A DNA stretch of 59,110 nt from an uncultured euryarchaeote (GCA_937894115.1 CALBFP010000303.1:1-59110), one strand, 5' to 3'; counted from the first letter of the stretch, positions 6,924 to 41,008 are shown. Made by a program: numbers and translations. The notes: a model not told the origin generated them from the sequence alone.

Positions 6924-8702
6924 ATGTGTGGGCTTTCTGGCATGCTTGGTTCCCCCGATCCAAGCGTTGTCAACAAGATGGTTTCTTTACAACATCATCG
7001 CGGTCCAGACGGTTCTGGGCTGTGGCACGACCCAGAGGTCTGTCTTGGACACGTGCGGCTTGCAATCGTCGATTTGGAGGGCAGTCCTCAGCCCATCCAG
7101 TCGCAAGAGGGAAACGTATTGATTGCCAATGGGGAAATATACAATTTTGAATCCATACGCTCCTCATTGTCAGGTTACTCATGGACAACCTTTGGCGACA
7201 GTGAAACAATTCTAGCATTGTTTGAGAAAACAAGTCTAGGCAATCAAAATGCCTCAGCAAAAGATCACGGAGCGTGGATTCAGCAACTGGATGGAATGTT
7301 CGCTTTTGCATTATGGAATCCAGTGAACCATCAGTTGATTTTGGCGAGGGATGAAATGGGTATCAAACCCTTGATTCGAACACGAGTGGGAGATTCATTG
7401 CTCTTTTCAAGCGAAGTCAAAGCGCTGCGCGCACACCCTGCGTACAAGCCTCAACTGGACGAATGTGCGTTGATGGCCCGTCTCGTGTGGGAGTACCCTC
7501 TTGATGCAACAACGTTGTTCGCCGACGTCCATCAGGTACGGCCCGGAACGGTTGAGGTATGGTCGTTGGAAGAAGGGGTGCCCGTTCTTGTCGATTCACA
7601 TCGATTTTCGAACCCGAGAATCGAACCAGTTGCTGCATACAACGAATCTCTTGGAGCACAACGATTGCTTGATGGCTTCATCGATAGTGTTGGACAGCGA
7701 CTGATGTCCGATGTCCCTGTTGGAATCGTCCTTTCAGGTGGTCTTGATTCCTCGTTGGTCGCCGCTGTTGCCAACGATGCAGCACAGCGCTACGACCGAC
7801 CAACACCCGAATGCTGGACGGTCGCCGAAAGCGAGGACAATCCGGATTGGGTTGCCGCTGAATTGGTGGCCTCTTCGTTGGATTTGAACCATCACCAATC
7901 CATCATGGAAAGCGACTCGTTCGCAAAGCACTTGCCGATGTTGTCATGGCATGGAGAGGACCTCGATGTCTCTGTGTTGTTCTTCCAACCGTTGTTCAAA
8001 ACGATGGCTCAATCGGTTCGTGTTGGATTGTGTGGTCAAGGTGCTGACGAAATTCATGCTGGTTATCCTCGGTATTCCAATTTGGAATCTCACAGAGGTG
8101 AACTTAGGAAACGCATTCAAATGTTGAATCATCAATTCACTAAAACGTTCGATTCAGGTGCATTGGATGTCAACGATGGAGGTTGGTGGGAGGCGGATCA
8201 TCGGCCGGAAAAGCATCTGCAATCCTTGCAGTCAACCTTGCAATTCGAATTGGACCATGGACAACTGAGCAATTTTCAACTTCGCCTTGTTGATCGACAT
8301 TCAATGGCGCATTCGTTGGAGGTACGCGTACCGTTTTTGGGGCGTTCACATCGAAAGGATGCACTTCAACTTCCAATGAATCAACGCTTACCTGAAAGCG
8401 GTCTTGAGAAGAAAGCACTTCGTCAAGCGGCCTCTTTAACTTCGTTACCGACCAGTGTTGTTGAGCGCAAGAAACTCCCTGCTGGAACAGCGACATCACC
8501 GACCTTGCTAAGCGATTGTTTGAATGAATACAGACCGCATATCGAAACGATTGCTTCACGATGGAAGTTCTGTGAACCGCTTTTGAAACATCAACCCGAG
8601 CTCGCCCTCGGCCTCGGCTTGTTTGAGGCAATTCACCTGACGGGTGACCAACAACCTCGATACAATCGATCGATTGATGCATTGCTAGCGGAGGTGATTT
8701 AA
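6924..8702 (+). CDS. asnB: Asparagine synthetase (glutamine-hydrolysing) family amidotransferase
   Basis: 592 aa. It has N-terminal MCG (Cys2 Ntn nucleophile), HRGPDG and the SGGLDSS PP-loop. Confidence 0.9.
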   Translation: MCGLSGMLGSPDPSVVNKMVSLQHHRGPDGSGLWHDPEVCLGHVRLAIVDLEGSPQPIQSQEGNVLIANGEIYNFESIRSSLSGYSWTTFGDSETILALFEKTSLGNQNASAKDHGAWIQQLDGMFAFALWNPVNHQLILARDEMGIKPLIRTRVGDSLLFSSEVKALRAHPAYKPQLDECALMARLVWEYPLDATTLFADVHQVRPGTVEVWSLEEGVPVLVDSHRFSNPRIEPVAAYNESLGAQRLLDGFIDSVGQRLMSDVPVGIVLSGGLDSSLVAAVANDAAQRYDRPTPECWTVAESEDNPDWVAAELVASSLDLNHHQSIMESDSFAKHLPMLSWHGEDLDVSVLFFQPLFKTMAQSVRVGLCGQGADEIHAGYPRYSNLESHRGELRKRIQMLNHQFTKTFDSGALDVNDGGWWEADHRPEKHLQSLQSTLQFELDHGQLSNFQLRLVDRHSMAHSLEVRVPFLGRSHRKDALQLPMNQRLPESGLEKKALRQAASLTSLPTSVVERKKLPAGTATSPTLLSDCLNEYRPHIETIASRWKFCEPLLKHQPELALGLGLFEAIHLTGDQQPRYNRSIDALLAEVI

Positions 8703-9898
8703 TGTCCTATGTCCATGAGTTGAGCGATGTTCTTGAAGAAAAGCGGGATGAAATTATCGCATGGATGGCAAATAAGCGATCAGAGATTGAGGTTCCGATT
8801 TACGGAAGCGTGGACATTCGCGATGCAGGTTGGAAAATCGCAGTAGTGGATGCCAATCAATTTCCGGCAGGCTTTAACAACACATCTGAGTCGGATATCC
8901 CTCAGCTAACAGAGCGCATTTCTGCCCATATCGAACGTCATAAACCGGGTTGTGAATGGGTTCACATATACCCTGAATCGCATACAAGGAACCAGGGATA
9001 TGTTGAGAATCTGCGGGCTTTGTTCAACTTGGTTGAACGGGCAGGATACCGTTGCACAATCGGCAATCCTGAACTCGATGGTCTTGGCAGTTTAAACGGG
9101 ATTCATGGGCCATTGCCTCTGCATCAGGTTGATGTGATCGATGGCATTCTCAAAGTCCAAGGTCAACAACCAGATTTTATTCTTCTTAACAACGATTTGA
9201 CGGACGGCGGGCTTGAAGGTTTGAATGCTGCAAGTGTGCTCCCAAGTCCGCAAATGGGCTGGCACAAACGCAAAAAATCTCACCACTTTGATTTCCTTAG
9301 ACCTCTTGTAGAAGAAATTAGTGAGATCATAGGTATCGATTCATGGCACCTAATCTGCGATTCTTTTGTTTCTGAGGAGAAGTGTCTCGAAAAAGAGAAT
9401 TGTCGGATACAATTAGCAAGTGATGTCGATGTTTTCCTCGCCCGGCTCGCTCAACGCTATGCTTCATTGGGAATCGATCGGGAACCCGTCGCCTACATCA
9501 AAAACAACCGTGGCACATACGGACTAGGCATCATGACCGTTACAAGTGGTGAGGAATTGTTGAATTTATCGAACCGCAAGATGAAGAAACTCATGTATGG
9601 CAAAGGGACGTCAGATACTGAGGATTTCTTGATTCAGGAAGGTGTTCCAACTCTGATGAAAACACAAGCTGGTGCACCCGTTGAACCTGTTGTGTATCTC
9701 GTAGACGGTGATGCATCTTCTTGGTTCTACAGAATCAACCCCAAAAAGGATGAGATTGGGAATCTTAACTCACCAAGCGCACGTTTCGTTACATCGGAAG
9801 AAGATCGCTCCTACATGACCCATGCGCACAATTGGCACGCACTGTTATCGGAACTGTCGATGTTGGCCATGGGTCTCGAATATGCCGCACTTCGCTAA
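8702..9898 (+). CDS. GshA-type (Acidithiobacillus-type) glutamate-cysteine ligase family protein
   Basis: 398 aa. PIYGSVDIRDAGWKIAVVDANQFPAGFNN and YPESHTRNQGY closely resemble my recollection of the conserved N-terminal block of this ligase family ([26 protein letters not shown]). The start overlaps the asnB stop (TAATG). Confidence 0.6.
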   Translation: MSYVHELSDVLEEKRDEIIAWMANKRSEIEVPIYGSVDIRDAGWKIAVVDANQFPAGFNNTSESDIPQLTERISAHIERHKPGCEWVHIYPESHTRNQGYVENLRALFNLVERAGYRCTIGNPELDGLGSLNGIHGPLPLHQVDVIDGILKVQGQQPDFILLNNDLTDGGLEGLNAASVLPSPQMGWHKRKKSHHFDFLRPLVEEISEIIGIDSWHLICDSFVSEEKCLEKENCRIQLASDVDVFLARLAQRYASLGIDREPVAYIKNNRGTYGLGIMTVTSGEELLNLSNRKMKKLMYGKGTSDTEDFLIQEGVPTLMKTQAGAPVEPVVYLVDGDASSWFYRINPKKDEIGNLNSPSARFVTSEEDRSYMTHAHNWHALLSELSMLAMGLEYAALR

Positions 9899-9939
9899 CA
9901 AGAAGTGGTTCATTTAAACAACAAACCCTTAGCGGGTTC

Positions 9940-10599
9940 ATGCGTCGTGAGGTGCTTTATGTCCTGACGATTGCTGTTGGCTTATTCGTCTCTGCGAAGT
10001 ATGCACAATGGCCTGTAGACATCTGGTGCATTGCAGTGTTTTCGGTGATCTTTTGGAAAACAAACCGCAAGGAACGCATCGAGATGATTGCCGTGCTTGC
10101 GTTTGCCACACCGATGGAATTGTTCTTCAGTGAGGTCTGGCTCATTTACGAGTATCAGCGGAACTTCATGCCGTTTTTTGTACCGTTTGGACATTACTTT
10201 TTGTTCGACCTTGGTCGACGTGTGGCGAAAACACTCCCAGATGGTTCCGCCATGAAACTCATTCTCATACTTGTCCCCTTGGTTGTTTATGGTGCAGTTG
10301 TTGGGACGGATACCTCAGCGATAGTTCTCATTGTCTTGACGCTAGGATTTGTGTATTGGGGTCCTGAACCACGTCTTTACGCTTCGATGGTCTGGCTCGC
10401 TTTGGCCATGGAATTATGGGGTACGTATCTAGGGAACTGGACATGGAAAAACGATGTACCTTGGACCAGCCTAACAGCATGGAACCCACCGCTTTTGGTC
10501 GGTGCTTTCTATTGTTTTGGAGATTTACTTGTTAATTTGAGCGTTGCTAAGTTTCAAGGACAACCCATTGCTGAGGTAAACCATGACGTCCTCGGATGA
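9940..10599 (+). CDS. Polytopic membrane protein, uncharacterised
   Basis: 219 aa from the internal ATG (MRREVLYVLTIAVGL). It has 6-7 hydrophobic helices. The upstream 36 codons of the track ORF overlap the preceding gene. Confidence 0.6.
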   Translation: MRREVLYVLTIAVGLFVSAKYAQWPVDIWCIAVFSVIFWKTNRKERIEMIAVLAFATPMELFFSEVWLIYEYQRNFMPFFVPFGHYFLFDLGRRVAKTLPDGSAMKLILILVPLVVYGAVVGTDTSAIVLIVLTLGFVYWGPEPRLYASMVWLALAMELWGTYLGNWTWKNDVPWTSLTAWNPPLLVGAFYCFGDLLVNLSVAKFQGQPIAEVNHDVLG

Positions 10600-10915
10600 G
10601 TTGAGGCTTCGCCGCGAAAAAGAGGCGAAGCGAATACGAGCGAGTCTGAACCGTCAACGTGGTATTCAACATGCTTCTCTCAAAGGAGGCGAGTCGGCCG
10701 TTGCCTTCGTTAAGGAACAGTTGTGTATTGGGTGTGACCAATGCACTATTGTTTGCGATGATGATGCTATTGAGGTCTACAAAGTGGCTATGCGCAGCCC
10801 TCTGATTCAAGTGGAAACCAATCAAAAAGCGAAAATTGTTCGGCAAGATTGTACGGGATGCAGACTGTGCGTACTTGCATGCCCAACCGATGCCATCAGT
10901 ATGATCGACCGATGA
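10583..10915 (+). CDS. 2x[4Fe-4S] ferredoxin-domain protein
   Basis: Two CxxCxxCxxxCP-type motifs, CIGCDQCTIVCD and CTGCRLCVLACP. It has a basic N-terminal extension. Confidence 0.85.
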   Translation: MTSSDELRLRREKEAKRIRASLNRQRGIQHASLKGGESAVAFVKEQLCIGCDQCTIVCDDDAIEVYKVAMRSPLIQVETNQKAKIVRQDCTGCRLCVLACPTDAISMIDR

Positions 10916-10924
10916 GGTGAATGC

Positions 10925-11206
10925 ATGTCCAAGAAAGGAAAACAACCAACAGCACAACGTTTTGGTGGTGAGTTTGGGCCTTATCGTAAGGAAGGAACGA
11001 CGGGTGTATCCCTTGGAACGTTCAAGACATTGGTTTGGACCTCCAACATCGGTGGTCTCGTTCTTTGTGTAATCGCACTCGAATTGCTCTTTGTCCAACA
11101 AGAATTTTTGTGGGGTCTTGTAAGCATAATTGCGGGTGTACTGATTGCGCTCTTCCCGTCGAACTATGAGATCGTTGGCATGGACGAAGAGGCTCCACCT
11201 GAGTAA
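10925..11206 (+). CDS. Small membrane protein
   Basis: 93 aa with two hydrophobic helices. It is the last gene of the co-directional string. Confidence 0.45.
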   Translation: MSKKGKQPTAQRFGGEFGPYRKEGTTGVSLGTFKTLVWTSNIGGLVLCVIALELLFVQQEFLWGLVSIIAGVLIALFPSNYEIVGMDEEAPPE

Positions 11207-11210
11207 TGTA

Positions 11211-14000
11211 TCAGGCTTCGACTTCGGTCTTCACAGCGGAAGGAAGTTCGCTCTTTTTGGCGTTAACTTCACGTGCAAGGAAAGTGACCACATCAAGAAT
11301 TTCGATGTCTTCGTAGCGTTCATCACCTTCAAATTTGAGACATTCAAAGTGCGATACACATTTTGGACATGAGGTCAACATTGTGTCTGCTCCAGTAGAC
11401 TTGATCTCTTCCATTCGAGCAACACGAAGAGCACGGGCGTTTTCGTTGCAGGACATCATGCTGGAGACACCACAACACATTGCGTCTTCGCCGTTGTGTT
11501 CCATCTCCACCAAATCAACACCCTGAACAGCATTGATCAGTTCACGAGGCTCATCGTAAACGCCCATTTGTCGGCCGAGACGGCAAGGGTCGTGGAACGT
11601 CACGGTAGTTGCATCGGTTGAGAGCTGCATGTCAAATCCACTTTCGATGAGATATTCGGTTGTGTGCATGACCTTGACCCCTTCGAGTTCGTAATCTCGT
11701 GCAAAGGTTCGGAAACATTCTGCACAGGATGAGACGAGTGTATCAATACCAGTAGCCTCTATTTTCTTTTGATTGTATGCCTTGAGTTTCTCAAAGACTT
11801 CTGTAAGCCCTTGCCATTTCTGATCGTGACCGCAGCATTTGAGGAAATCACGTCCGAGATACGAGACGTCGTGCCCCATTTCTTCGAACAGCGTAAAGGC
11901 CGAAGTCGTGGACTCACCGAGGTTCATCTCACCTTCATTGACGTGAGAGAAGACCATTTCTTGATCGAGATAGTCCACACATCCAGGGTAGTATCCGACG
12001 TTGGACGAAATTGGATACTCTTCAACGGGTATGAAGTCCTCGTTGGACGCTTCTTCTGCTTCTGCAGCAAGAACCGCTTGCAGAACGGTGTGAGGAATCT
12101 CTGCTGCTGGGCCACCCACGATGAGACTTCGGCGGATGTCAACATAGGAGTCGTAGTTGACAAGTTGCGGACAAGCGTTGGTACACGCTGTACACGTTAG
12201 ACACGAATAGAGTGGAACACCGTCGTCCTCGTTGTTCCAAGAATTGTAAATGATGTTGAGTTTGTCTCCACCGTTGAACAGCCGAACAGGACAAGCATCA
12301 TCACAAAGGTCGCAACCATAACACTTGTTCATCTCAAATTCATAGCCACGTGCCATTGAACGCAAGAGAACAACAACAACAGCTCCGAAGGTTATGCAAG
12401 GAATAAACATGGCATAGGTCAGCTTTGCATCCAAAGATTTCGGATTGACGTGATAGGAAGGATTGTTGATGCTGCTGTAACCGATTCCAGTGGCAGCTGC
12501 TGCGGTGAGAAGTTCACCGTTGCTGAGGTCCACAACCTTCCCGGCGTTCTCTCCACCATCCCATAGGAGCAGCGGTTGGAAGGCACGAACTGAAAACGTT
12601 GTTTCAGTCGTGATGGATTCGTTTAACGCCAGCGGACCTGAGGCAGTAAGGCTGTATTCGTAGTAGTAGATTCCTGGTTCTAGGTTAATTTCTGCCCCTT
12701 CGCAACCCGTGAATGAGGTAATTGTTGTACCCGAACTGTCGCTAACCGACATCGTGCTTGAGAGCATGGTTGCTGTATTGACACCGTTGATCTTGCGCTC
12801 ACTCGCTCGGAATTCGCATGCAACATCGGTAGGTAGTGCCCCATCAGTGTACGTGTCCACTACGGTGAAACTTCCAGAGGTTGCGTACCCTTCCCCACCA
12901 GCAAATGTGACTGTCGCACCTGCTGCATTTTGTCCTTCCTCAGGGATTTGATGGTTGTTAGCATCGCTGAAATCGATGATTGTTTTCCGCGCAGGTTGGA
13001 AAATCTGCCAGTCCAGCCATGCACCTGCAGGTACCACCCCGTCCGTGTAACCTCGGTCGTCTGAGAACGAGTTGGTTTCGTGGACTTCAACATCCGCTGG
13101 TTGCGTTCGCATGGCTTCCAATTCAGGGTAATAATCGTGAGTGAGCCCTTTGATGGTCAAGAGTCCACCCGCTTCCCAGAATCCATTGTCATAGGTGTCG
13201 AATGTTGCCACAGATGCTCCGGCTGAGATGACAAGAGCACCGACGATCAGGCGTTTACCGTGTTCGGGCGTAAATCCTGAACCCCATGCTTTGACCAAGA
13301 CGTTCCGGCCAATGAAGTATATCATGATCCACAACAGCAACCCCGTGAGAATCCACGGCACTGCATTGAATATTTCTGCAATCCACGGCGCCCTTGTTCC
13401 ACACAACAGATCTCCGTGTGAATCCAATTTACAATAATCGGAGCGATTTTTACCGTACAACTCGAGGAAGATGTTGATCGAGAAAACGGAAATGAACCAA
13501 ACGTGAGCGAGGTAGACAGCACCTGCTGCTGCGAACCACGGGTCTTCAACAGGTCGCTTCTCACGACCACCGAGGAATGGAGGTAGAGCGAGGATACCGA
13601 CTGGAATTCCTGTAAGCGCAGCACCCCACCATGCAGCGTTCCAAGCAAAGACAGGTTGACCTACAATGTCGCCTATGAATCCTGTTGGAACGGTGAATTG
13701 AGGTAGATATTCACCCCATCTTAGGTAACCGTAAGAAAACAATACGTACCAATCGGGGAAAACGAAACCGGCTTGAGCGTAGGGGTCCGCAGCACCGTGC
13801 AATGGTGGAGGAATCAACCAGGCGTAGAACAAAAGAACCGCCGCCATGAAGGCAAAGAGAATGGTATCACGAAGAACTTCGTGAGGCCAGAAGGCGTGAC
13901 CCATACGGGTACGCTTTCGTTTTTCACCAGCTTCCTGCAACTTCGCCTTTTCGTCCATGTACGAGGTTGCAACTCGTCCAAGATTTTCCATTAAGCCCAT
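11211..14000 (-). CDS. Fusion protein: cytochrome b C-terminal (subunit IV-like) membrane domain, ~260-aa extracytoplasmic domain, TM helix, and HdrD/GlpC-like Fe-S domain
   Basis: 929 aa.
- aa 35-260: helices with FPDWYVLFSYG (the PEWY-type motif of cytochrome b / subunit IV)
- aa 528-548: TM helix
- aa 560-610: two ferredoxin motifs, CYGCDLCDDACP and CLTCTACTNACP
- two CCG domains: PGC..CCGHD..CAEC and DPC..MCCG..CPKC
A GGAGGG SD lies 8 nt upstream, 14 nt after the cytochrome b stop. Confidence 0.85.
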   Translation of the reverse strand: MGLMENLGRVATSYMDEKAKLQEAGEKRKRTRMGHAFWPHEVLRDTILFAFMAAVLLFYAWLIPPPLHGAADPYAQAGFVFPDWYVLFSYGYLRWGEYLPQFTVPTGFIGDIVGQPVFAWNAAWWGAALTGIPVGILALPPFLGGREKRPVEDPWFAAAGAVYLAHVWFISVFSINIFLELYGKNRSDYCKLDSHGDLLCGTRAPWIAEIFNAVPWILTGLLLWIMIYFIGRNVLVKAWGSGFTPEHGKRLIVGALVISAGASVATFDTYDNGFWEAGGLLTIKGLTHDYYPELEAMRTQPADVEVHETNSFSDDRGYTDGVVPAGAWLDWQIFQPARKTIIDFSDANNHQIPEEGQNAAGATVTFAGGEGYATSGSFTVVDTYTDGALPTDVACEFRASERKINGVNTATMLSSTMSVSDSSGTTITSFTGCEGAEINLEPGIYYYEYSLTASGPLALNESITTETTFSVRAFQPLLLWDGGENAGKVVDLSNGELLTAAAATGIGYSSINNPSYHVNPKSLDAKLTYAMFIPCITFGAVVVVLLRSMARGYEFEMNKCYGCDLCDDACPVRLFNGGDKLNIIYNSWNNEDDGVPLYSCLTCTACTNACPQLVNYDSYVDIRRSLIVGGPAAEIPHTVLQAVLAAEAEEASNEDFIPVEEYPISSNVGYYPGCVDYLDQEMVFSHVNEGEMNLGESTTSAFTLFEEMGHDVSYLGRDFLKCCGHDQKWQGLTEVFEKLKAYNQKKIEATGIDTLVSSCAECFRTFARDYELEGVKVMHTTEYLIESGFDMQLSTDATTVTFHDPCRLGRQMGVYDEPRELINAVQGVDLVEMEHNGEDAMCCGVSSMMSCNENARALRVARMEEIKSTGADTMLTSCPKCVSHFECLKFEGDERYEDIEILDVVTFLAREVNAKKSELPSAVKTEVEA

Positions 14001-14014
14001 TTAATTCCCTCCAT

Positions 14015-14881
14015 TCAATGCGGCTCCGCGATGCCTTGTACCCAGACAATAAACAGGTGTATGATAATCAGTGTGGTGACGATCACGGGTAATATAAACA
14101 CGTGTATGAAATACATGCGTGTAACGGTTCTTGGTGTGAGAGATGAGCCTCCGAAGAGGAGTGTCGCTACGTACTTGCCCACAAGCGGTGATGAATTCGC
14201 AAGGTTGATTCCAATAACGGCTGCACCGTACGCAAGACTGTCCCATGGCAACAAGTATCCTGAATATCCGAAGACGATGGTCAGTGCCATGAGGGCGACG
14301 CCAATGAGCCAGTTGAGCTCACGTGGGTTTCGGTAGGCGCCGGTGAAGTAGACACGACACATGTGTAAGAATACGGAAGCGACCATAAAGTGCGTCGTCC
14401 AGTGGTGAACAGCACGAATGATGTAACCAAATGGAAGCTCCAGCATGATGAATTCCATCGAGGCATATGCTGGAGAAGGATCACCTTCTCCTCCGGGAAC
14501 GTAGTAGATGCCGAGAATGGTTCCTGTGAGGACGAGGATGATGAAACTCAGGAACGAAATGCCCCCAAGGCAATAGAGCGGGTACCAATACCAGATGATG
14601 CGAAGTTTGTATTTCTCTGCGTGCGTGAGTGGCATTTGGCGGTGCATGTTGTAATATGCACCCTTGGACATGTTCCAGTAATCTTGAATGCGGAAGCGCG
14701 TGTCCATCCATGAAAACACCCAGAGGAACGCTCGCTCAGAGATGCCCATCCCTCCAGTCGACTCAACCGCACGGAGAATTTCTCGCCTTGGCATCTCTTC
14801 GGTTTCTTTGCGGAGGGTGAAGGCCACCAACACGATGATGAAGGCGATAAAGAACCACAAAATCCAGAACATTGTTGTCAT
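14015..14881 (-). CDS. Cytochrome b (b6-type N-terminal heme-binding core)
   Basis: 288 aa. Helix B has HHWTTHFMVASVFLH (H-x13-H) and helix D has HVFILPVIVTTLIIIH (H-x14-H). It also has YSGYLLPWD. Confidence 0.92.
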   Translation of the reverse strand: MTTMFWILWFFIAFIIVLVAFTLRKETEEMPRREILRAVESTGGMGISERAFLWVFSWMDTRFRIQDYWNMSKGAYYNMHRQMPLTHAEKYKLRIIWYWYPLYCLGGISFLSFIILVLTGTILGIYYVPGGEGDPSPAYASMEFIMLELPFGYIIRAVHHWTTHFMVASVFLHMCRVYFTGAYRNPRELNWLIGVALMALTIVFGYSGYLLPWDSLAYGAAVIGINLANSSPLVGKYVATLLFGGSSLTPRTVTRMYFIHVFILPVIVTTLIIIHLFIVWVQGIAEPH

Positions 14882-14890
14882 CTTTTCACC

Positions 14891-15733
14891 TCAATCACAG
14901 TATGTCAGCCAGTCGACGTAATCGGTGATGCCTTCGACGACATCGTTGTTGAGTACGATGGGGATGAGAGGCAGACCAACGGGCGCGGGTCCTCCTGACT
15001 TGCGGACACCAGCGTAGGTAAACGTCGCCCCATTGGCGCGGTTACGATTGGTGTTCATCTCCAACGCAGTCGTATCGAATCGAGAAGAGTGGCATATGCA
15101 GAACAATTTGGTTCCGCCATCATCTGTGCCACCAGGGGTCCATGTGTCATCCGTGTAGGAATTGGAAACGAGTTGCCATCCCGGGATGCAACAGAGATGC
15201 GTGCATCGGCCAAACACCATGATGATGTCATCGGATGGATAAATGCGTTCGTCCAGAGCCACCATGTCTTCAAAATGCCCAATATACTTCCCAGATTCGT
15301 CATACCCTTCCATCATCTGGAAGCGAGCTTTGTTGTTGTCCATTGGCGAGCCCTGCCACTTGGAATCCTCGACATAGGTGACTACGACAGGAACACCGTT
15401 CCATACACCAGCGGCACCGGCAGTTCCTGTGTTGGAGTTTGCTGCCTCGGCAACGAAATCAGCTTTTGTCATTGACTGGAGGTGCTTTGGACCGTACCAC
15501 GCTGTGTCCTCTCGGCCTTTGGCCCAGAATTTGACGGAGAGATCTCCTGCAGAGCCACCGCCAGGAGGCAAAAGAATGGCTGCAAATCCGAGGACGCCCA
15601 AAGATGCAGCGAAAACACCTGCTGCGGTGTTGAACCCGTAACGCAGGAACTGCCGCCGATTGATAACGGTCTCTCCTGCACTTGCAGAGCCATCCTTTGT
15701 TTCAGGGACGAACAAGTTGTAGTCTTTGGCCAT
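14891..15733 (-). CDS. Rieske [2Fe-2S] protein with twin-arginine signal
   Basis: Cluster boxes are CTHLCC and CICHSS. The N-terminus has RRQFLRYGF followed by a hydrophobic helix. The internal ATG at 15733 was chosen because the longer track ORF would overlap the upstream gene. Confidence 0.88.
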   Translation of the reverse strand: MAKDYNLFVPETKDGSASAGETVINRRQFLRYGFNTAAGVFAASLGVLGFAAILLPPGGGSAGDLSVKFWAKGREDTAWYGPKHLQSMTKADFVAEAANSNTGTAGAAGVWNGVPVVVTYVEDSKWQGSPMDNNKARFQMMEGYDESGKYIGHFEDMVALDERIYPSDDIIMVFGRCTHLCCIPGWQLVSNSYTDDTWTPGGTDDGGTKLFCICHSSRFDTTALEMNTNRNRANGATFTYAGVRKSGGPAPVGLPLIPIVLNNDVVEGITDYVDWLTYCD

Positions 15734-15738
15734 GAACT

Positions 15739-16188
15739 TCACCACTTGTACTCCTTCCAGTCTTTGACATGCTCTGGTACATATTTGTTTTGCGAGTGCT
15801 TCACGATAATGGTATCCGGCAAGATGTATTTGAGATAGATGAGGCCCATCATAATGAGCGTTGTGAGCGTCATTGCGAGATGGAACGCAAGCTGTTGTTG
15901 GTCCCAACTCTTGGCAAGACCGTAAATGAGGGAGAAGGCCCAATAGCACGCCCAAAAGATACCCCATGCGAAGAAAAACATGGTCAAATATGAGCCACCA
16001 GAAGGCGCAAGACTTGCGCTGACGATGGTCCCAGATTCTGCTACATCGTGGACTCCATGGCTGATTGCTTCATCCATTTGTGATTCTGTGAGTTCGACGC
16101 CTTCGAGTGCGTTTCGGGCATCCTTGACGGAAATAGAACCGTCTGCGACACCTCGAAGCAGATTGTTGATGGCGTCGTCGTACATCAC
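15739..16188 (-). CDS. Small membrane protein of the Rieske/cytochrome b operon
   Basis: 149 aa with a soluble N-terminal ~55 aa followed by 3 hydrophobic helices. It is tightly packed between flanking operon genes, with a 4-nt overlap upstream and a 5-nt gap downstream. Confidence 0.6.
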   Translation of the reverse strand: MMYDDAINNLLRGVADGSISVKDARNALEGVELTESQMDEAISHGVHDVAESGTIVSASLAPSGGSYLTMFFFAWGIFWACYWAFSLIYGLAKSWDQQQLAFHLAMTLTTLIMMGLIYLKYILPDTIIVKHSQNKYVPEHVKDWKEYKW

Positions 16189-17003
16189 TGGTCACCTCGG
16201 CGCATCAGTTTGTAGCGAAGCCTCAATTGGTTGCTTCGTCCTTCGTAAGAAGTTGAGAATCCGTAACGTAGCATTAGTCCTGCAAAGATGACGCACATGA
16301 TAACGGCACCAAATCCAAGAAGTCCGAGCCAGTGAGCCCGCAGGCTCGCTCCCATGTGGTGCAGATCGGTTCCATGGGATTCCGGTTCGGGTGGAGCGAC
16401 ATTACCATCGCCAGCAAACACGGTTCGTGTGCCTCGAGCAAGGCTGTCCTCGTCGCCTTCAACAAGCGCAAACGTCAGTTGATTCCACATGTCTTCAATC
16501 ACATTTCCAAGACCACCGTCTCCGTTGACGCTGTTTCCAGTAATCCAGAAAATCACGGTCCCATCTCCTTGGGCAGGTGCGGTCCATGTGATGTCCCACA
16601 TCCTGTCGGATTCAGCAGCCGATGCGGATGTGTGAGTGAGCGATTGAAGGTCGCCTTGCCAGTTGTCGACTCCGATTCCTCCAAGTTCACCTCCAGAGAC
16701 TCGCATCGAGAAACCAGCGGAATATTGCCCTCCTGCCGCAGGGCCTCCGATGAGGTGGAGTTGAAGTTCATAGGTTTCACCGGGAGTCCATGCGTAGGGG
16801 ACGCTGTCGAGAATAACTTGCACGCTGTTTGCAGGTGCTGCGTTGTGGCAAAGACAACCTTCTTTGGCGACATCGGTGATGTCGTTTTGTTGTCCGCCAA
16901 TGCCACTTGGAAGCGATGTTGCAAGCCCAGGGAAGAGCAACAAGACCAACGCGGTTACCAGAATGGTGCGGCGTTTGGAGGATGACGCAGTCAGCATGGA
17001 CAC
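16185..17003 (-). CDS. Extracytoplasmic, C-terminally membrane-anchored protein with a single Cys-x-Cys-His motif (candidate redox subunit)
   Basis: 272 aa with signal peptide (RRTILVTALVLLLFPGLATS), EGCLCHN, a beta-rich domain (WDITWTAPAQGDGTVIFWITG) and a C-terminal TM helix. It is the first gene of the operon. The start is the GTG at 17003 or the ATG at 16997, which is preceded by an AGGGTG SD. Confidence 0.65.
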   Translation of the reverse strand: MSMLTASSSKRRTILVTALVLLLFPGLATSLPSGIGGQQNDITDVAKEGCLCHNAAPANSVQVILDSVPYAWTPGETYELQLHLIGGPAAGGQYSAGFSMRVSGGELGGIGVDNWQGDLQSLTHTSASAAESDRMWDITWTAPAQGDGTVIFWITGNSVNGDGGLGNVIEDMWNQLTFALVEGDEDSLARGTRTVFAGDGNVAPPEPESHGTDLHHMGASLRAHWLGLLGFGAVIMCVIFAGLMLRYGFSTSYEGRSNQLRLRYKLMRRGDQ

Positions 17004-31795: not shown

Positions 31796-34700
31796 ATGCG
31801 CCAACACTTGAACGGACTCTGTGCTGTCTTCCTCATCTCCATAATGCTTGGTTCTGTAGCGTTACCACAGTTCCCAAATGCTGAAAAGAAGGTTACGGAA
31901 CTTGACGAATCGCCAGAATCGTTCTTGACAAGTAGCCGTTCTGCACCCAGTACAATTCTTGCCACAGGGTCTGGTCAAGCCAACGAAGATGGAGAACACA
32001 TCGTAGCCCTTCCAAATGGCGGCTGGGTTGTGGGAATGTCGGAATGGACAAACTCGACATTGACCTATGGGACTCATACGCTCTCTACAACCTCTCCCTT
32101 CAATTCGATTGGATATGGTGAATTCTTCCTAGCAATGATGGATGACCAAGGGTCCTGGACTGGATTCATAAGCGCTGACCACAGCATTGGCAGTGGCGGT
32201 CTATCGATACTCACCGACGTTACTGTTGGTATGGCTGGGGAAATTTTTGTTTGCGGTTATTTTTACGGAGAAATTGCATTTGGTCCACCAGGTCCAAATA
32301 CCATTATTACAAACCTCAACTCTGGATATCATCTCGAAGGGTTTGTTGCGAAAGCAGACCCAATGGGTAATTGGATGTGGGCCACGAGTTTCACAACTTT
32401 GGTGAACGGTTCTGGAGAATTCAGCAGAGCCAAGTCGTTATCCGTTGATATGATGGGCGATCTGTTTGTCTCGGGTGAGTTTAGTGGTGAAACCGATTTT
32501 GGTGGCCAGAGCATAAATGCAACAAGCCGTGACGTCTTTATTGGAAAATTTGACGGGAACATGGGTACACTCAACTGGGTCATCAATGGAGGTGGAATTG
32601 GTACGGACCAAGTTTTTGATATGGCGGGTACACCATCAGGCGGTGTCAAATTGGCCACGTCAACAGACGGCGTCTCCCAGTGGGGAGCCAACACATACAT
32701 AGCAAATGGAAATCTTGACGCCGTTCTTGTCGATATTGATGCTAATGGAGGTGTGGTTGGCACGACAGGGATTGGAACGAGTGGCCAAATTACTGCAGTC
32801 TTGAAAATCCACGTCGATGGAGGTGGGAACACGTTCATGGCTGGGACTTTTGATGGAACAATTACCAGTGGAGGTTGGACTGCAACCGCAAGTTACGGTG
32901 GTAACGATATCTTTGTTGCAAAGAGTGCTGTGAACCAAGCCAACAGTTGGGCACTCGTTTCAGGCACAAACGCATACGACGAACCGCGAGCGCTTGCTGT
33001 AACCTCAAACGGTGGTGTTGTTTACGGTGGTTCCCTTGGCTCAACATTTACAGCGGGTTCTAAATCGATTTCAAACTCAAACGACGACGGTTTTGCCGTT
33101 GGTCTCTCCACAACTGGTTCGGTCAATTGGATTGAAAAGATTGGAGGATCACAATACGATTACGTTTGGGCTATGGATGTAAACAATTCAGATTACGTTG
33201 GTGCTGCAGGGGCTTTCTCCGGTTCTATGACGCACAAAGGAGTCTCGGTCACATCTGGAGGTTACCGCGATGTCTTTGCTTGGATTTTTGATCCAGCAGG
33301 ACTGATTGATACCGATGGTGATGGAGTCGTGGATTCAGCACCCGATAATTGTCCGACAGTTCCAAATTCTGATCAAGCCAATACAGACGGTGACTCAGAG
33401 GGGGATGCTTGTGACTCCGACGACGATAACGATGGACTGACGGACAGCTTCCCAGACAATTGCCCAAGAAATGGTGAATTCAATTGGACCAGTGATCGCG
33501 ATTTCAATGACCCTGCATCTTCGACCGATTGGGACAACGATGGGTGCAAAGACGATTCCACCGAAGACCTCGACGATGACAATGACGGTGTGCAAGATGC
33601 AGACGATGCCTGTCCACGCACCAGTTATTCTCCTCCACGACCAACATGGGTTTCGGATACAACAACCGACACTGATGGTGATGGCTGCCGAGATTCGGAT
33701 GAAGACTTGGACGATGACAACGATGGCTTTGAGGACGCTGCAGACGATTGTCCTACGGTTGTTGGAACATCCAGTCTCGGTACAGACGGATGCATTGATT
33801 CCGATGGTGACCTCTGGTCGGATACAACCGATGATTGTCCGACTGAGGCGGGAAATTCAACAGAAGGCGGATTGAACGCTTGTCCCGATCAGGACGGCGA
33901 TGGTTGGGCCGATTCGATTGATGATATGCCAATGGACCCAACGGTTTGGAGCGACCTCGATGATGATGGATTTGGCGACAATCTTGGAAGTACACCTGCC
34001 GATGCATGTCCACAAACACCGGGTACATCAACGGCGGACCGCTACGGTTGTGTCGATGCTGATGGTGATGGTTACTCAACACCGACAGAGGATTGGGGCG
34101 TCGACAGTGGTGCGGATGCATTCCCAAGCGATTCGACCCAATGGAGCGACTTCGATGAGGACGGTTTTGGTGACAATTACGGAAACGCTTCATGGACGGA
34201 TCGGCCAGAAAACTGGGTAGGAATCTTTGTTGATGGGGCCCAAGATCAAGATGCTTGTCCGATGCAACCTGGAACCAGTTGGCGTAACGGCATCCTCGGA
34301 TGTCCGGATTCCGACGGTGATGGTTGGTGGGATGTGCAAGATGCCTTCCCTACAGAAGCGACGCAACACTCGGATGTTGATGGTGATGGTTTCGGTGACA
34401 ATCAGAGCGGAGTGAATGCTGATGCATGTCCAAACATAGGTGGGAACTCAACGTTCGATCGTCTTGGTTGCATCGATACGGACGGCGACGGACGGTCCGA
34501 CCCTGAGTTGAGTTGGACGTTTATTGACGGTGGTGACGAATTCCGCCTCGAATCAACACAGTGGTCTGATTCCGATGATGATGGTTACGGGGATGAAATT
34601 GATGGTTTCCAAGGAGATGCTTGTCCAACTGTTTACGGTTTATCGTTTGAGGACCGGTTTGGTTGCCCAGATACGGACCGCGATGGTTATTCCGACCCCG

Positions 34701-35143
34701 ATGCAAACTGGACGATTGAAGACGGCGCTGATGCCTACATAACCGATTCAACAGCGTATGTGTACGTCGAACCGGTAGAAGTAGAGAGTGAAGAAGAGAA
34801 CTTTTTCACAAGTCCGCTGATGCTCATTGTGTATGCTTCAATCGTGTTGGTTCTCGTAGGATTGGGATTCATGATGACTCGACGTTCCAAGAAAGAAGAA
34901 TCAATCGATATCGCCTCGTTTGGTAGTCAACAACCAATGATGCAACAAATGACGGTTCCCCTTGCTCAAACCAATCCGTATCAGCAACCTGTACAAAATC
35001 AGACTTATACGCAGGTCGCTGCCCCTCAGCCGGTTCAACCTGATCCTGCAATGGAATACTACAACGGTTTACTCGCACAAGGATACACGCCCGAACAGGC
35101 TTCAATGTATACAAAGCAGTATTTCCCTCAATTCAACCACTGA
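31796..35143 (+). CDS. Giant surface protein: signal peptide, SBBP-like beta-propeller repeats, thrombospondin type-3 (Ca-binding) repeats, TM anchor and Gln/Pro-rich tail
   Basis: 1115 aa. N-terminal repeats look like GDLFVSGEFSGETDFGG. There are more than 15 DxDxDGxxDxxDxCP-type repeats. The TM helix is LMLIVYASIVLVLVGLGFMM. Confidence 0.85.
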   Translation: MRQHLNGLCAVFLISIMLGSVALPQFPNAEKKVTELDESPESFLTSSRSAPSTILATGSGQANEDGEHIVALPNGGWVVGMSEWTNSTLTYGTHTLSTTSPFNSIGYGEFFLAMMDDQGSWTGFISADHSIGSGGLSILTDVTVGMAGEIFVCGYFYGEIAFGPPGPNTIITNLNSGYHLEGFVAKADPMGNWMWATSFTTLVNGSGEFSRAKSLSVDMMGDLFVSGEFSGETDFGGQSINATSRDVFIGKFDGNMGTLNWVINGGGIGTDQVFDMAGTPSGGVKLATSTDGVSQWGANTYIANGNLDAVLVDIDANGGVVGTTGIGTSGQITAVLKIHVDGGGNTFMAGTFDGTITSGGWTATASYGGNDIFVAKSAVNQANSWALVSGTNAYDEPRALAVTSNGGVVYGGSLGSTFTAGSKSISNSNDDGFAVGLSTTGSVNWIEKIGGSQYDYVWAMDVNNSDYVGAAGAFSGSMTHKGVSVTSGGYRDVFAWIFDPAGLIDTDGDGVVDSAPDNCPTVPNSDQANTDGDSEGDACDSDDDNDGLTDSFPDNCPRNGEFNWTSDRDFNDPASSTDWDNDGCKDDSTEDLDDDNDGVQDADDACPRTSYSPPRPTWVSDTTTDTDGDGCRDSDEDLDDDNDGFEDAADDCPTVVGTSSLGTDGCIDSDGDLWSDTTDDCPTEAGNSTEGGLNACPDQDGDGWADSIDDMPMDPTVWSDLDDDGFGDNLGSTPADACPQTPGTSTADRYGCVDADGDGYSTPTEDWGVDSGADAFPSDSTQWSDFDEDGFGDNYGNASWTDRPENWVGIFVDGAQDQDACPMQPGTSWRNGILGCPDSDGDGWWDVQDAFPTEATQHSDVDGDGFGDNQSGVNADACPNIGGNSTFDRLGCIDTDGDGRSDPELSWTFIDGGDEFRLESTQWSDSDDDGYGDEIDGFQGDACPTVYGLSFEDRFGCPDTDRDGYSDPDANWTIEDGADAYITDSTAYVYVEPVEVESEEENFFTSPLMLIVYASIVLVLVGLGFMMTRRSKKEESIDIASFGSQQPMMQQMTVPLAQTNPYQQPVQNQTYTQVAAPQPVQPDPAMEYYNGLLAQGYTPEQASMYTKQYFPQFNH
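33308..34740 (+). repeat. Coding tandem array of thrombospondin type-3-like Asp-rich calcium-binding repeats
   Basis: Reiterated motifs DTDGDG, DSDGDGW, DxDDDGFGDN and (A/D)CP(x)xxG occur throughout the translation. At the DNA level these appear as recurring gatggtgatgg / gacggcgatgg units. Confidence 0.8.
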
Positions 35144-38890: not shown

Positions 38891-41008
38891 TCACTTCCTT
38901 GTTTCTTTGCGGCCACGTCTTCGTCCTTGACGGATGTCAATGCGCTGTGAATTTCGCTTCTTTGATTGACGTTGCTTTTGTTGAGATTTTTTTGCTTCAC
39001 TGGAACCGATGCTTGCAATTCCTCCCTTTGAGAGCAATGCATCCAGTTCGTTCAAGGATAAGGAATCTCCACTCGAAGCTTTCTGTCGGACCTCATTTAT
39101 GTTTACTTCTGGGGCACGTTGACGTCTCGGTCTTGCTTGATGGTTGTCTATACGTCGCGCATTGTTGCGTTGTTTTTTGCTTGAAATACGCTGCCAAGCC
39201 TCTAGACGGCCTATTTCTCGTCGAAGTTCGTGTTTCGTAGTGTATTGCTCGTTAATGGAGCGTTGGAGCAATTTGGCGTTTTTCTGGAATTCTCGCACAC
39301 TCTTAGGATTCAAGTGAATGCCTTCAAGTGCAGGGTTGCTTTCAATCAATTGTTCAAGAATGTCTGTCTCCCTTCTTCTTGTTTTCTTCAAGGCTCGGTA
39401 TTCTTCATTCTGTTCACGACGAAGGCGAATAAAATCTTGATGTGCCTGATTTGATTGGAGTGATGCCTCGTACATTGCCTGAAGTTCAAAGAAATAAGCA
39501 AAATCACCTCTCTCAACCCCTAGACTTGGTGCATTGAAGACGTCAACCTCGGAGGTAAGTTTGTCGAACATACGCAACAGTTCTTCTTTGATTCGTTTGG
39601 TTGGGATGGCAATTCTTTGATTTATTCCGTCACGAACTTCTCGAATTTCTTGAACTTTCATACTCAATGGGCGCAGTTCAGCTAAGATCTGCTGCCGATC
39701 GGACTTGGCGATTCGTGTTTCTTTCAATCCTCCACGAAGCAAATCCAACAGTTCCTTGGAATTTTGACGTTCCTCTACAAGGCTACGGATCTGGTTCTCA
39801 ACGGTTTCGAGGTTGGTCTGCATTGTTTCAAGGCGCGTTGTAATTTCATCTCTTGATACGTTTCTCAAATCATGAAACAAGTCTTCAGGTTCTTCATCGA
39901 TATCGATTACTGGTTCGCAAATTGTTTGCCATGACGCTCCTTCCGATATCAGTTGAATCGCCCGCATGAACTCGTTTTGTATGGACATTGCACCCTCTGC
40001 GCGAAGCACTCGGGAAAGATCGTGCTCATGGTCGAATGGGTCCTCAATAGGCATGACATGAGCCATCATTCCATCTTCTGCACCCGTAACAACCTCAAGC
40101 GGCAACGGTCCCGTTTGCTGCCACTTCTTTTCCTTGGTAGAGAGCGGATTGCCTGAACGAATCGATACAACCATGGTGTCCCAATCCCAACGCGTTGCAA
40201 ATCGATCAAAGAAACTGACCAACAATGAGGCAAGCGTTTGTGCGTTTTTCGATGCGTAGGCATCATCGTTGAATCCAACATCGTATGTCGTGCCAAGAAA
40301 TGAGATGGGCTTAGAGGCGTTTTCATGTTGTCGATTTGGAGCGAGAGGAGGTTGAACCAGTTGCGCATGTTGGATGCATAACAATGTCCAAGCATAAGAG
40401 GAAAGGGTTCCTTCGAAAGCGTTGTTGACTCCACGGCGGCTTGCCCAATACTTGACCATCTGGACCAATTTTTGAAGCCGTTTTTCTTGCGCATAGGATT
40501 TCATCATCATCGAATTGTAGATTGCAAGACGGTTGTCCATTGAGATGTCAACATCCAAACCAGAACGCGGGTCTCTGAATTTTACGATGGGTATTCGAGC
40601 TTTTGGAATCACTTTGATGTCTTCCATGCCTTCCTCATGAAATAAGCCAGATAGTTTCCTGAGGACCTTTCTTGGTGTCTTGTTCTTGAAGGAGAGGCAC
40701 AAATCGAGGTCACCTGTGCCAATCGAGAGATTGGTGACGCTGGAACCAAATGCCTCAAGCATGGAATTTTTTCCGAATCTACGGAAGATAACTCCCTTCA
40801 AGTGTTTAGTAAGCGATTCTCTACTTTTGGCTTTTGCATCGCCAATTTTCTTGAACATTTTGTTGAAATCAGAATCCAATTTGTCCATAATGTCCTTGTC
40901 GATATTCGCCAAATCGGGGATTTCAATTTCTTCAATGAGGTGTTTGTAGAGGTAAGACCAGCGTTCCTGCTGATCTTTGGAGAGGCCTGTTGTGGTGCAA
41001 ACACTCAT
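38891..41008 (-). CDS. Cid1/TRF4/GLD-2-type (non-canonical poly(A)/terminal uridylyl) nucleotidyltransferase fused to a COG1340-like coiled-coil module and a basic tail
   Basis: 705 aa.
- Pol-beta NTase motif FGSSVTNLSIGTGDLDLCL with third Asp in LDVDIS
- KARIPIVKF and VKYWASRRGVNNAFEGTLSSYAWTLLCIQ
- PAP-associated-like LLVSFFDRF..VVSIRSG and IEDPFDHEHDLSR
- aa ~385-705: coiled coil ending SGDSLSLNELDALLSKGG plus an Arg/Lys tail. Confidence 0.8.
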   Translation of the reverse strand: MSVCTTTGLSKDQQERWSYLYKHLIEEIEIPDLANIDKDIMDKLDSDFNKMFKKIGDAKAKSRESLTKHLKGVIFRRFGKNSMLEAFGSSVTNLSIGTGDLDLCLSFKNKTPRKVLRKLSGLFHEEGMEDIKVIPKARIPIVKFRDPRSGLDVDISMDNRLAIYNSMMMKSYAQEKRLQKLVQMVKYWASRRGVNNAFEGTLSSYAWTLLCIQHAQLVQPPLAPNRQHENASKPISFLGTTYDVGFNDDAYASKNAQTLASLLVSFFDRFATRWDWDTMVVSIRSGNPLSTKEKKWQQTGPLPLEVVTGAEDGMMAHVMPIEDPFDHEHDLSRVLRAEGAMSIQNEFMRAIQLISEGASWQTICEPVIDIDEEPEDLFHDLRNVSRDEITTRLETMQTNLETVENQIRSLVEERQNSKELLDLLRGGLKETRIAKSDRQQILAELRPLSMKVQEIREVRDGINQRIAIPTKRIKEELLRMFDKLTSEVDVFNAPSLGVERGDFAYFFELQAMYEASLQSNQAHQDFIRLRREQNEEYRALKKTRRRETDILEQLIESNPALEGIHLNPKSVREFQKNAKLLQRSINEQYTTKHELRREIGRLEAWQRISSKKQRNNARRIDNHQARPRRQRAPEVNINEVRQKASSGDSLSLNELDALLSKGGIASIGSSEAKKSQQKQRQSKKRNSQRIDIRQGRRRGRKETRK

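Follow-up and report, generated by a model that had tools for sequence, protein, structure and literature searches.

In the cytochrome b6f and bc1 complexes, the n-side ends of subunit IV or of the corresponding C-terminal helices flank the Qi pocket with haem bH and, in b6-type complexes, haem ci as well, and an electron route from ferredoxin to haem cn has long been proposed and debated for b6f. In HdrDE, DsrMK and QmoABC-type complexes, which have neither a Rieske protein nor a Qo site, a cytoplasmic module with iron-sulfur (Fe-S) clusters and CCG domains is connected both to a b-type cytochrome in the membrane and to the pool of quinone or phenazine. EtfD and EMO carry, fused to their membrane domain, a soluble module with two cubane clusters and two clusters bound by CCG domains, which acts as a relay between the cytoplasm and a haem or quinone site. 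The clusters of EtfD pass electrons from electron transfer flavoprotein (ETF) to haem b and on to menaquinone (PMC13083937), and EMO of S. aciditrophicus, with two non-cubane clusters, has the same wire role from ETF to quinone (bioRxiv 10.64898/2026.08.18.745454). Here we report on a gene at positions 11211..14000 (minus strand) of a 59,110-nucleotide (nt) stretch of DNA from an uncultured euryarchaeote (GCA_937894115.1 CALBFP010000303.1:1-59110, hereafter the window), which encodes a 929-residue fusion of a subunit IV-like domain, an insert and an HdrD/EtfD-like Fe-S module. We show by comparative sequence analysis that its product is the predicted counterpart of subunit IV in a Rieske/cytochrome b complex of the b6 type, which oxidises menaquinol and comes from an archaeon of the Poseidoniales (Marine Group II, MGII). 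The identity of its parts is assigned with high confidence, and we propose, with a probability of about 0.6, that the fused module serves as an electron wire on the n-side, connecting haem bH/ci with a partner in the cytoplasm.

The open reading frame (ORF) of the fusion begins with an ATG codon and closes a compact operon on the minus strand, in which it is preceded, in order, by genes for a Reeler-like protein, a DUF7318-like protein, a Rieske protein and a b6-type cytochrome b. The stop codon of the cytochrome b gene (TGA, ending at 14015) and the ATG of the fusion are separated by a 14-nt spacer, ATGGAGGGAATTAA, and a GGAGG sequence is located 7 nt 5' of the ATG, in agreement with the original prediction that the fusion shares an operon with the Rieske and cytochrome b genes. 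A search of 5.8 billion proteins retrieved 465 homologues, and the AlphaFold 2 (AF2) model of the protein has a mean predicted local distance difference test (pLDDT) score of 75.

The first 180 residues (13461..14000, minus strand) constitute the subunit IV or cytochrome b C-terminal core, as defined by an orthologue profile and by alignment with shorter fusions over the same residues, and contain helices E (43-66), F (122-145) and G (155-180). The Qo-site motif PDWY at residues 82-85 (13746..13757, minus strand) lies within FPDWYVLFSYG (residues 81-91) in the loop that follows helix E. The block of residues 76-100 around it is approximately 100% conserved in the orthologue conservation profile, and P82, D83 and W84 are invariant in 53 aligned long and short sequences. 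The PDWY motif goes with menaquinol and low-potential Rieske proteins (PMC4122944). Direct Pfam scans of residues 1-275 and 276-555 gave no match even at E<=10, the Cytochrom_B_C model thus missing the protein, so we built a profile from 15 orthologues and searched it against all PDB sequences and 1.8 billion representative proteins. The six PDB matches at E<=10 were all subunit IV of b6f (best E 0.026), aligned with helix E and the PEWY loop in register. Among the representative proteins, 132 were matched at a library-wide E<1e-3; those that we scanned are PF00032 members with 42-79 bits on that model, either stand-alone subunit IV proteins (140-199 residues, up to 79 bits) or full-length cytochromes b whose C-terminal half gave the match. 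Because the profile reaches both PDB subunit IV and PF00032 proteins, the homology of the N-terminus to subunit IV and the C-terminal part of cytochrome b is established at the level of sequence profiles. The subunit IV-like N-terminus with a Qo loop, claimed in the original prediction, therefore stands; as for the families expected there, CCG and Fer4 are matched significantly by Pfam models, and the cytochrome b C-terminal model is not, its homology being significant via the orthologue profile only. No pair of conserved histidine ligands was found in the subunit IV part.

The C-terminal module combines two cubane [4Fe-4S] binding motifs (residues 556-612; 12165..12335, minus strand), matched by Pfam Fer4_8, Fer4_9 and Fer4_10 above their cut-offs, with two CCG domains of the non-cubane cluster type (approximately residues 668-765 and 800-885; 11346..11999, minus strand), matched by Pfam CCG in two stretches (3.3e-24). 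The cubane motifs have the form CX2CX2CX3CP (C560/563/566/570-P571 and C600/603/606/610-P611), and both CCG motifs are complete with five cysteines each (C674...C722-C723-G...C759xxC762 and C806...C842-C843-G...C878xxC881), so that the two ferredoxin motifs and two complete CCG domains noted earlier are borne out. Across the 53 aligned sequences, from lineages that are 33-42% identical, all 18 cluster cysteines, including the eight of the cubane motifs, are invariant except for C723 (conserved in at least 90%), and column identity in the Fe-S/CCG region is 0.81-0.97. The best PDB match by sequence is EtfD of M. smegmatis (PDB 9ojn, 1.1e-22), and it covers the soluble module only (query 45-370 versus EtfD 408-754). 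Structure comparison by Foldseek gave EtfD (6.2e-13), LutA (1.7e-10, TMt 0.77) and HdrB (5odc_B, 2.1e-07, TMt 0.61). The best NCBIfam match of the fusion is the thiol:fumarate reductase TfrB (2.1e-31); this and all other NCBIfam matches, such as HdrB (19.6 versus 345 bits) and DsrK (40.5 versus 400 bits), are far below the curated cut-offs, and thus the fusion is filed under none of those equivalogs.

The topology was deduced from Kyte-Doolittle hydropathy, positive-inside counts and the helices of the AF2 model. The protein has six hydrophobic segments (43-66, 122-145, 155-180, 205-232, 249-270 and 527-550), and the density of lysine and arginine residues obeys the positive-inside rule with the N-terminus inside. 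The loop bearing PDWY, with one such residue in 55, and residues 271-526 are thereby placed outside and the Fe-S module inside, in accord with the outside domain and overall orientation anticipated from the sequence. The five helices that had been counted in the cytochrome b part are resolved by alignment to the short fusions into the three core helices E, F and G and two helices of a lineage-specific insert; the one further transmembrane (TM) helix also predicted is segment 527-550 (12351..12422, minus strand; hydropathy 2.23), equivalent to the fourth helix of the short relatives, with which it shares L527, G539 and Y553. The first cubane motif starts approximately 10 residues past this helix, and the same helix-to-Fer4 spacing is seen in the short form P0172 (helix 165-191, Fer4 at 202). 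Helix 527-550 thus brings the chain back to the cytoplasm, and with so short a connection the clusters have to be located at the cytoplasmic (n-side) face of the complex.

The insert (residues 181-520; 12441..13460, minus strand) is specific to the Poseidoniales, and is the sole difference between the long and short forms in the alignment, as the short forms have no residues aligned there. Its approximately 340 residues comprise an outside loop with conserved C190 and C200, the TM helices 205-232 and 249-270, and a beta-sandwich ectodomain. Since helix 527-550 corresponds in the alignment to the fourth helix of the short forms and the insert adds two helices, the topology is kept, and the insert is best explained as a later, topology-neutral addition on the outside face. 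In the AF2 model, the helices are present, and the all-beta ectodomain (approximately residues 340-520, pLDDT >90) and the CCG region are modelled well. The ectodomain is the least conserved region of the fusion (column identity 0.47-0.65), and a fold search with the model of the whole protein matched it only to generic beta-sandwiches of the GOLD-like or phage-fibre type and assigned no function.

Lengths, coverage and identities were taken from the best 120 of the 465 homologues. In this set, 114 proteins from many independent assemblies have 910-942 residues, 98-100% query coverage and 61-91% identity, and the six shorter ones are located on contigs of 2-10 kb. Those with names are listed as 'heterodisulfide reductase-related iron-sulfur binding cluster [Candidatus Poseidoniaceae archaeon]' or 'Fe-S oxidoreductase'. 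The original prediction had raised the possibility of a chimeric join between the modules; with the architecture kept in more than 100 independent full-length orthologues and the junction regions conserved among them, such a join is excluded. It had also asked whether related genomes keep the fusion or have separate genes. Within the Poseidoniales, no stop or frameshift separates the parts among the best 120 of 465 homologues, and the fusion holds there; some other relatives do have a separate CCG gene.

The orthologue profile also reached distant relatives in which a single protein of 540-790 residues combines PF00032, Fer4 and two CCG domains (P0172, P0152, P0175, P0194, P0183 and P0148), most of them having four helices that lead straight into the Fe-S module; fusions of this four-helix kind have 540-710 residues. 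The wider distribution of the short form emerged from a search that used P0172 as query and from a scan of GTDB with one genome for each species. Fusions lacking the ectodomain occur in many metagenome-assembled genomes (MAGs) of Thermoplasmata and Thermoplasmatota, one MAG of Bathyarchaeia, and Candidatus Geothermarchaeales. The module is split in soil Thermoplasmata and three MAGs including UBA136 (L078, 3805-5714; also L073, L075 and L071-L087), where a protein of subunit IV plus Fer4 (341-445 residues) is followed by a protein with two CCG domains (295-353 residues). In L073, L075 and L078, the start of the latter gene overlaps the preceding stop by 4 nt, and its first CCG motif is degenerate (KCSGHD). 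The presence of a separate, translationally coupled CCG gene in these relatives supports a functional association of the two parts. Among unfused genes, those most closely related to the Fe-S part are HdrD-like, encode approximately 340 residues and are located in hdrCBA-mvhD clusters of Methanoperedens and ANME-2.

The gene directly upstream of the fusion encodes a 288-residue b6-type cytochrome b (14015..14881, minus strand; Pfam Cytochrome_B, 1.5e-41; PDB cytochrome b6, 1.1e-43). Alignment to PDB cytochrome b6 shows that both histidine pairs and the cysteine motif (lYCLGGIs versus fYCLGGIt) are kept; the histidines provide four haem ligands, and the cysteine of YCLGG predicts an attachment site for haem ci (cn). 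The b6 core is preceded by an N-terminal extension of approximately 50 residues, which includes one more hydrophobic helix (residues 4-22). The divergent Rieske protein (14891..15733, minus strand; TIGR01416, 4.7e-9) finds only Rieske subunits in PDB and carries CTHLCC...CICHSSRFD. Its orthologues have 278-282 residues, and M79 of the listed ORF is the probable start. The operon therefore resembles those of b6f and Bacillus-type bc complexes in its split cytochrome b with four histidine ligands and the haem ci cysteine in YCLGG, in the separate subunit IV gene directly downstream with a P[ED]WY loop, and in the Rieske gene upstream. It differs from them in that subunit IV bears a C-terminal module of two [4Fe-4S] and two CCG motifs and, in the Poseidoniales, two added helices and an ectodomain, and in that the window operon, headed by a Reeler-like protein with the GCLCHN motif, has no gene for cytochrome f or c1.

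This head protein of 272 residues (16185..17003, minus strand) is a choice-of-anchor-V/Reeler-like membrane-anchored ectoprotein matched by NF041895 above its cut-off (6.7e-25). It consists of a signal or anchor helix, a beta-sandwich resembling a Reeler domain (3coo_B, 4e-5) and a strongly conserved C-terminal TM helix and tail; the GCLCHN motif is invariant, as are C50, C52, H53 and, in the tail, H224. A phmmer search of the protein against PDB found nothing meaningful. It sits in the place of cytochrome c1 or f and is a candidate p-side partner of the complex. At L004, a multihaem cytochrome c is encoded in the position of the Reeler-like protein. The remaining gene of the operon encodes a small DUF7318-like membrane subunit of 149 residues (15739..16188, minus strand), with a weak match to Pfam DUF7318 and a BLASTP match of 8e-14 to the DUF7318 protein of L001; a DUF7318-like protein ahead of the Rieske protein is conserved in every lineage and present in most of the surveyed operons.

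Like EtfD and EMO, the fusion joins two cubane and two CCG-bound clusters to a membrane domain. In EtfD, however, the module is preceded by a five-helix anchor with its own b haem, whereas the anchor in the window is a haem-free subunit IV, and the first CCG motif, complete in the fusion, is degenerate in EtfD, where it holds a linear [3Fe-4S] cluster (PMC13083937). HdrDE, DsrMK and QmoABC-type complexes share the coupling of a cytoplasmic CCG/Fe-S module to a membrane cytochrome, and relatives of the window operon carry HdrC-like, HdrB-like and HdrA2-C-terminal/MvhD-like genes, as Hdr-like complexes do; in contrast to HdrDE, the membrane part of the fusion is of the subunit IV type and not an HdrE-type cytochrome, and scores on the curated HdrD, DsrK and TfrB models are far below cut-off. 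The fusion is therefore not a member of HdrDE, DsrMK or EtfD/EMO, as its membrane part is a subunit IV without its own haem and the curated models are not reached; the module belongs to the HdrD/non-cubane-cluster superfamily, and the core is a b6-type Rieske/cytochrome b complex.

Among published precedents, the closest that we came upon is a clade of bacteria termed 'PDWF-FeS' (Kao and Hunte 2014, PMC4122944), in which a cytochrome b including the Qo-motif region is fused to cytoplasmic Fe-S domains, namely 4Fe-4S plus MvhD or ferredoxin plus flavin oxidoreductase. That clade has PDWF, no Rieske gene in the cluster and no CCG domain, unlike the window with its PDWY, Rieske protein and HdrD-type module. 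The concept of a core wired to a cytoplasmic low-potential module also appears for anammox Rieske/cytochrome b complexes (PMC12954380); these belong to anaerobic bacteria, have other accessory proteins, namely FAD/NAD(P) and haem c subunits from separate genes, and use no CCG module. The 'unusual Rieske/cytb complex' of Methanoperedens (PMC4683180) was considered as a prior description and set aside, as it has pentahaem cytochromes c and no HdrD fusion. The MGII literature mentions only 'a cytochrome b and a Rieske protein' (PMC6336850). A full-text literature search, with most subscription journals outside its coverage, found no description of a subunit IV-HdrD fusion, consistent with the earlier remark that the architecture is unrecognised among characterised complexes, and the arrangement appears to be undescribed so far.

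We analyzed the gene neighbourhoods by classifying ORFs in 88 loci by BLASTP. In 31 surveyed loci from several archaeal lineages, genes for a DUF7318-like protein, a Rieske protein, cytochrome b, a subunit IV-Fe-S protein and a further Fe-S protein follow one another in this order, and the YC[LF]GG motif is found in most of their cytochromes b. In Thermoplasmata, the cytochrome b bears an N-terminal ectodomain of approximately 630 residues (Big_5). At L001 (5343-7973), this ectodomain has Big_5 repeats and a C-x5-C-H motif and stands where the window cytochrome b has its extra N-terminal helix. The downstream gene in Thermoplasmata encodes 508-521 residues that match the C-terminal Fer4 and MvhD part of HdrA2 (1.7e-41), and is followed by a gene for a small membrane protein. 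The P0172 locus has a multihaem cytochrome c gene before the operon and HdrC-like and HdrB-like genes after it. Fusion, fission and partner exchange around a constant core point to a real multi-subunit enzyme. Outside the Poseidoniales, HdrC-like, HdrB-like, HdrA-like and MvhD/FlpD genes follow the Rieske/cytochrome b-HdrD operon at L004 (8992-13875), and HdrA-like and MvhD/FlpD genes with a second HdrD-like gene follow it at L018 (4795-9561). The layout of these two loci suggests that the Rieske/cytochrome b complex is linked there to a flavin-based Hdr-type module.

In the Poseidoniales, the gene pair invariably found with the fusion is of another kind. A ferredoxin with two [4Fe-4S] motifs and 110-126 residues, whose best NCBIfam match is rnfB, is in all cases followed by a membrane protein of 93-113 residues. 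In the window, these are an RnfB-like ferredoxin of 110 residues (10583..10915, plus strand), matched by Pfam Fer4_21 and other Fer4 models and by NCBIfam rnfB below the cut-off (3.1e-12), and a 93-residue membrane protein (10925..11206, plus strand) with 53-57% identity to the L006 and L007 proteins. The latter has weak similarity (E ~2e-4) to proteins of 72-83 residues encoded after the Fer4 plus FlpD gene in Thermoplasmata. Ferredoxin-type genes occur near the fusion in L006, L007, L019 and L071-L083, and in relatives they run in the direction of the fusion gene. At L007 (Poseidoniaceae; 10768-11456), the pair lies 5 nt downstream of the fusion on the same strand, and at L006 it lies three genes from the fusion. 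The differing orientation of the pair, convergent with the fusion in the window but co-directional with it in L007, indicates that the two linked genes were locally inverted or rearranged.

These features lead us to the proposal that the module would link the n-side haems of cytochrome b, namely bH and the conserved haem ci site at Qi, to a cytoplasmic partner, of which the adjacent RnfB-like ferredoxin with its small membrane protein would be the likeliest. Electrons would flow inward, from reduced ferredoxin or ETF to the non-cubane clusters, the cubane clusters, haem ci/bH and finally quinone at Qi. Complex III would in that case also serve as an entry point of the ferredoxin/ETF:quinone type. 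The inward direction seems to us the more likely one, and is the least certain part of the proposal. It is favoured because the nearest characterised relatives run inward in aerobes, because the haem ci cysteine is conserved, and because an aerobic, heterotrophic way of life, an orphan RnfB and the lack of a canonical bc1 complex have been reported for MGII (Tully 2019, PMC6336850). The suggestion of a quinone- or thiol/disulfide-type redox module made in the original prediction is accordingly narrowed, with thiol/disulfide chemistry now one option, since EtfD and EMO use the same clusters purely as a wire.

Several observations weigh against this proposal. Both CCG motifs are complete, as in the catalytic HdrB and HdrD and unlike EtfD. 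HdrDE and DsrMK move electrons the opposite way, from the membrane to the cytoplasm. Unlike the EtfD and EMO systems, the 59-kb window lacks ETF genes in our ORF scans, and no ETF, acyl-CoA dehydrogenase or Hdr gene was found among the 30 further window ORFs scanned. The ferredoxin gene of the window is convergent with the fusion gene and hence not co-transcribed with it, and its identity with the 'RnfB' of Tully 2019 is presumed. The Fer4 region is a weak part of the AF2 model (pLDDT 40-60).

Beyond the wire itself, a tentative extension would make the n-side of the complex an open port instead of a closed Qi site, exchanging electrons with the RnfB-like ferredoxin via haem ci and the HdrD-type clusters; we hold this to be possible, with odds somewhat against it. 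If true, it would provide either a hard-wired, ferredoxin-fed Q cycle or quinol-based electron bifurcation to ferredoxin, present in fused or split form across the Thermoplasmatota and tied to HdrA/MvhD-type modules in anaerobic relatives.

The anatomy of the fusion would be identical if electrons ran outward, and this is the alternative that survives best. A quinol at Qo would give one electron to the Rieske protein and on to oxygen, and the other would pass via bL, bH/ci and the Fe-S module to a low-potential cytoplasmic acceptor, for example the RnfB-like ferredoxin, instead of to Qi. Anammox Rieske/cytochrome b complexes have been proposed to make NAD(P)H in such a way (PMC12954380), bacterial cytochromes b fused to 4Fe-4S and MvhD domains are known (PMC4122944), and relatives of the window operon have HdrA2-C-terminal/MvhD-like, HdrC-like and HdrB-like genes directly downstream. 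However, those HdrA/MvhD-type partners have been lost from the Poseidoniales operon, by its established stoichiometry the Q cycle would yield only half the protons if Qi were given up, and Poseidoniales, as aerobic heterotrophs (PMC6336850), would be expected to have ample low-potential reductant and so no obvious need for such a route. We therefore regard outward bifurcation as unlikely in the Poseidoniales, roughly a one-in-several prospect.

Less probable still is catalysis of the HdrDE/DsrMK kind, in which complete CCG clusters would reduce or form a cytoplasmic disulfide, of a gamma-glutamylcysteine-like thiol or of a protein, in exchange with the quinone pool through cytochrome b. With all five cysteines kept in each CCG motif, as in HdrB and HdrD, a catalytic disulfide-reductase role does have a basis, to which TfrB as the best NCBIfam match and the HdrD-like genes of Methanoperedens/ANME-2 hdrCBA-mvhD clusters as nearest unfused relatives may be added. 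On the other hand, every NCBIfam match stays far under its curated cut-off, EMO with its two non-cubane clusters performs electron transfer only, and metabolism of coenzymes M and B is not to be expected in the source organism. A gene for GshA lies 1.3 kb away, in synteny shared with L006 and L007, and implies a gamma-glutamylcysteine-type thiol in the source archaeon; the linkage is missing at the Thermoplasmata loci and may be plain synteny, and its proximity was dropped as a weak sign of a thiol substrate for this reason. Taken as a whole, a disulfide-catalysing role is doubtful. Finally, an artefact of assembly or gene calling, or a redox-dead structural remnant, for which the blank direct Pfam scans of the N-terminal domain and middle region and the six short-contig homologues might be cited, is rejected as highly improbable in view of the 114 of 120 best homologues that are full length in independent assemblies, the conservation of PDW and the cluster cysteines across distant lineages, and a degree of conservation in the Fe-S/CCG region that is the highest in the protein.

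Several other genes of the window were recorded alongside this locus. Just past the ferredoxin pair (6924-9898, plus strand) are an asparagine-synthase-like gene and that for GshA (glutamate-cysteine ligase, 2.3e-91). A multi-pass membrane ORF of 255 residues without a Pfam match (9832-10599, plus strand) lies between GshA and the ferredoxin, and in relatives this position is taken by DNA_binding_1 (Ogt-like) genes. Two products look unusual for an archaeal genome, a ribosomal protein S3Ae with a C-terminal SAP domain (50430-51401, plus strand) and a 705-residue Cid1/MTPAP-like nucleotidyltransferase with PAP_assoc (38891-41008, minus strand). An ORF of 1115 residues (31796-35143, plus strand), with a thrombospondin type 3 repeat as its sole match, probably encodes a large surface protein.

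The archaea of Marine Group II rank with the most abundant microbes of the surface ocean. Our analysis reveals the make-up of their complex III and suggests a place for their orphan ferredoxin, and through the fusion their respiratory chain may be linked directly to electron carriers of the cytoplasm. A non-cubane-cluster module that is a simple wire in EtfD and EMO is here seen to reach a third kind of membrane anchor. The covalent cluster chain on the n-side is a natural experiment on whether the haem bH/ci side can trade electrons with soluble cytoplasmic carriers, an old question that is raised for b6f by the route from ferredoxin to haem cn and for anammox complexes by the idea of bifurcation, and the fused, split and insert-bearing versions of the protein form a ready comparative series for it.

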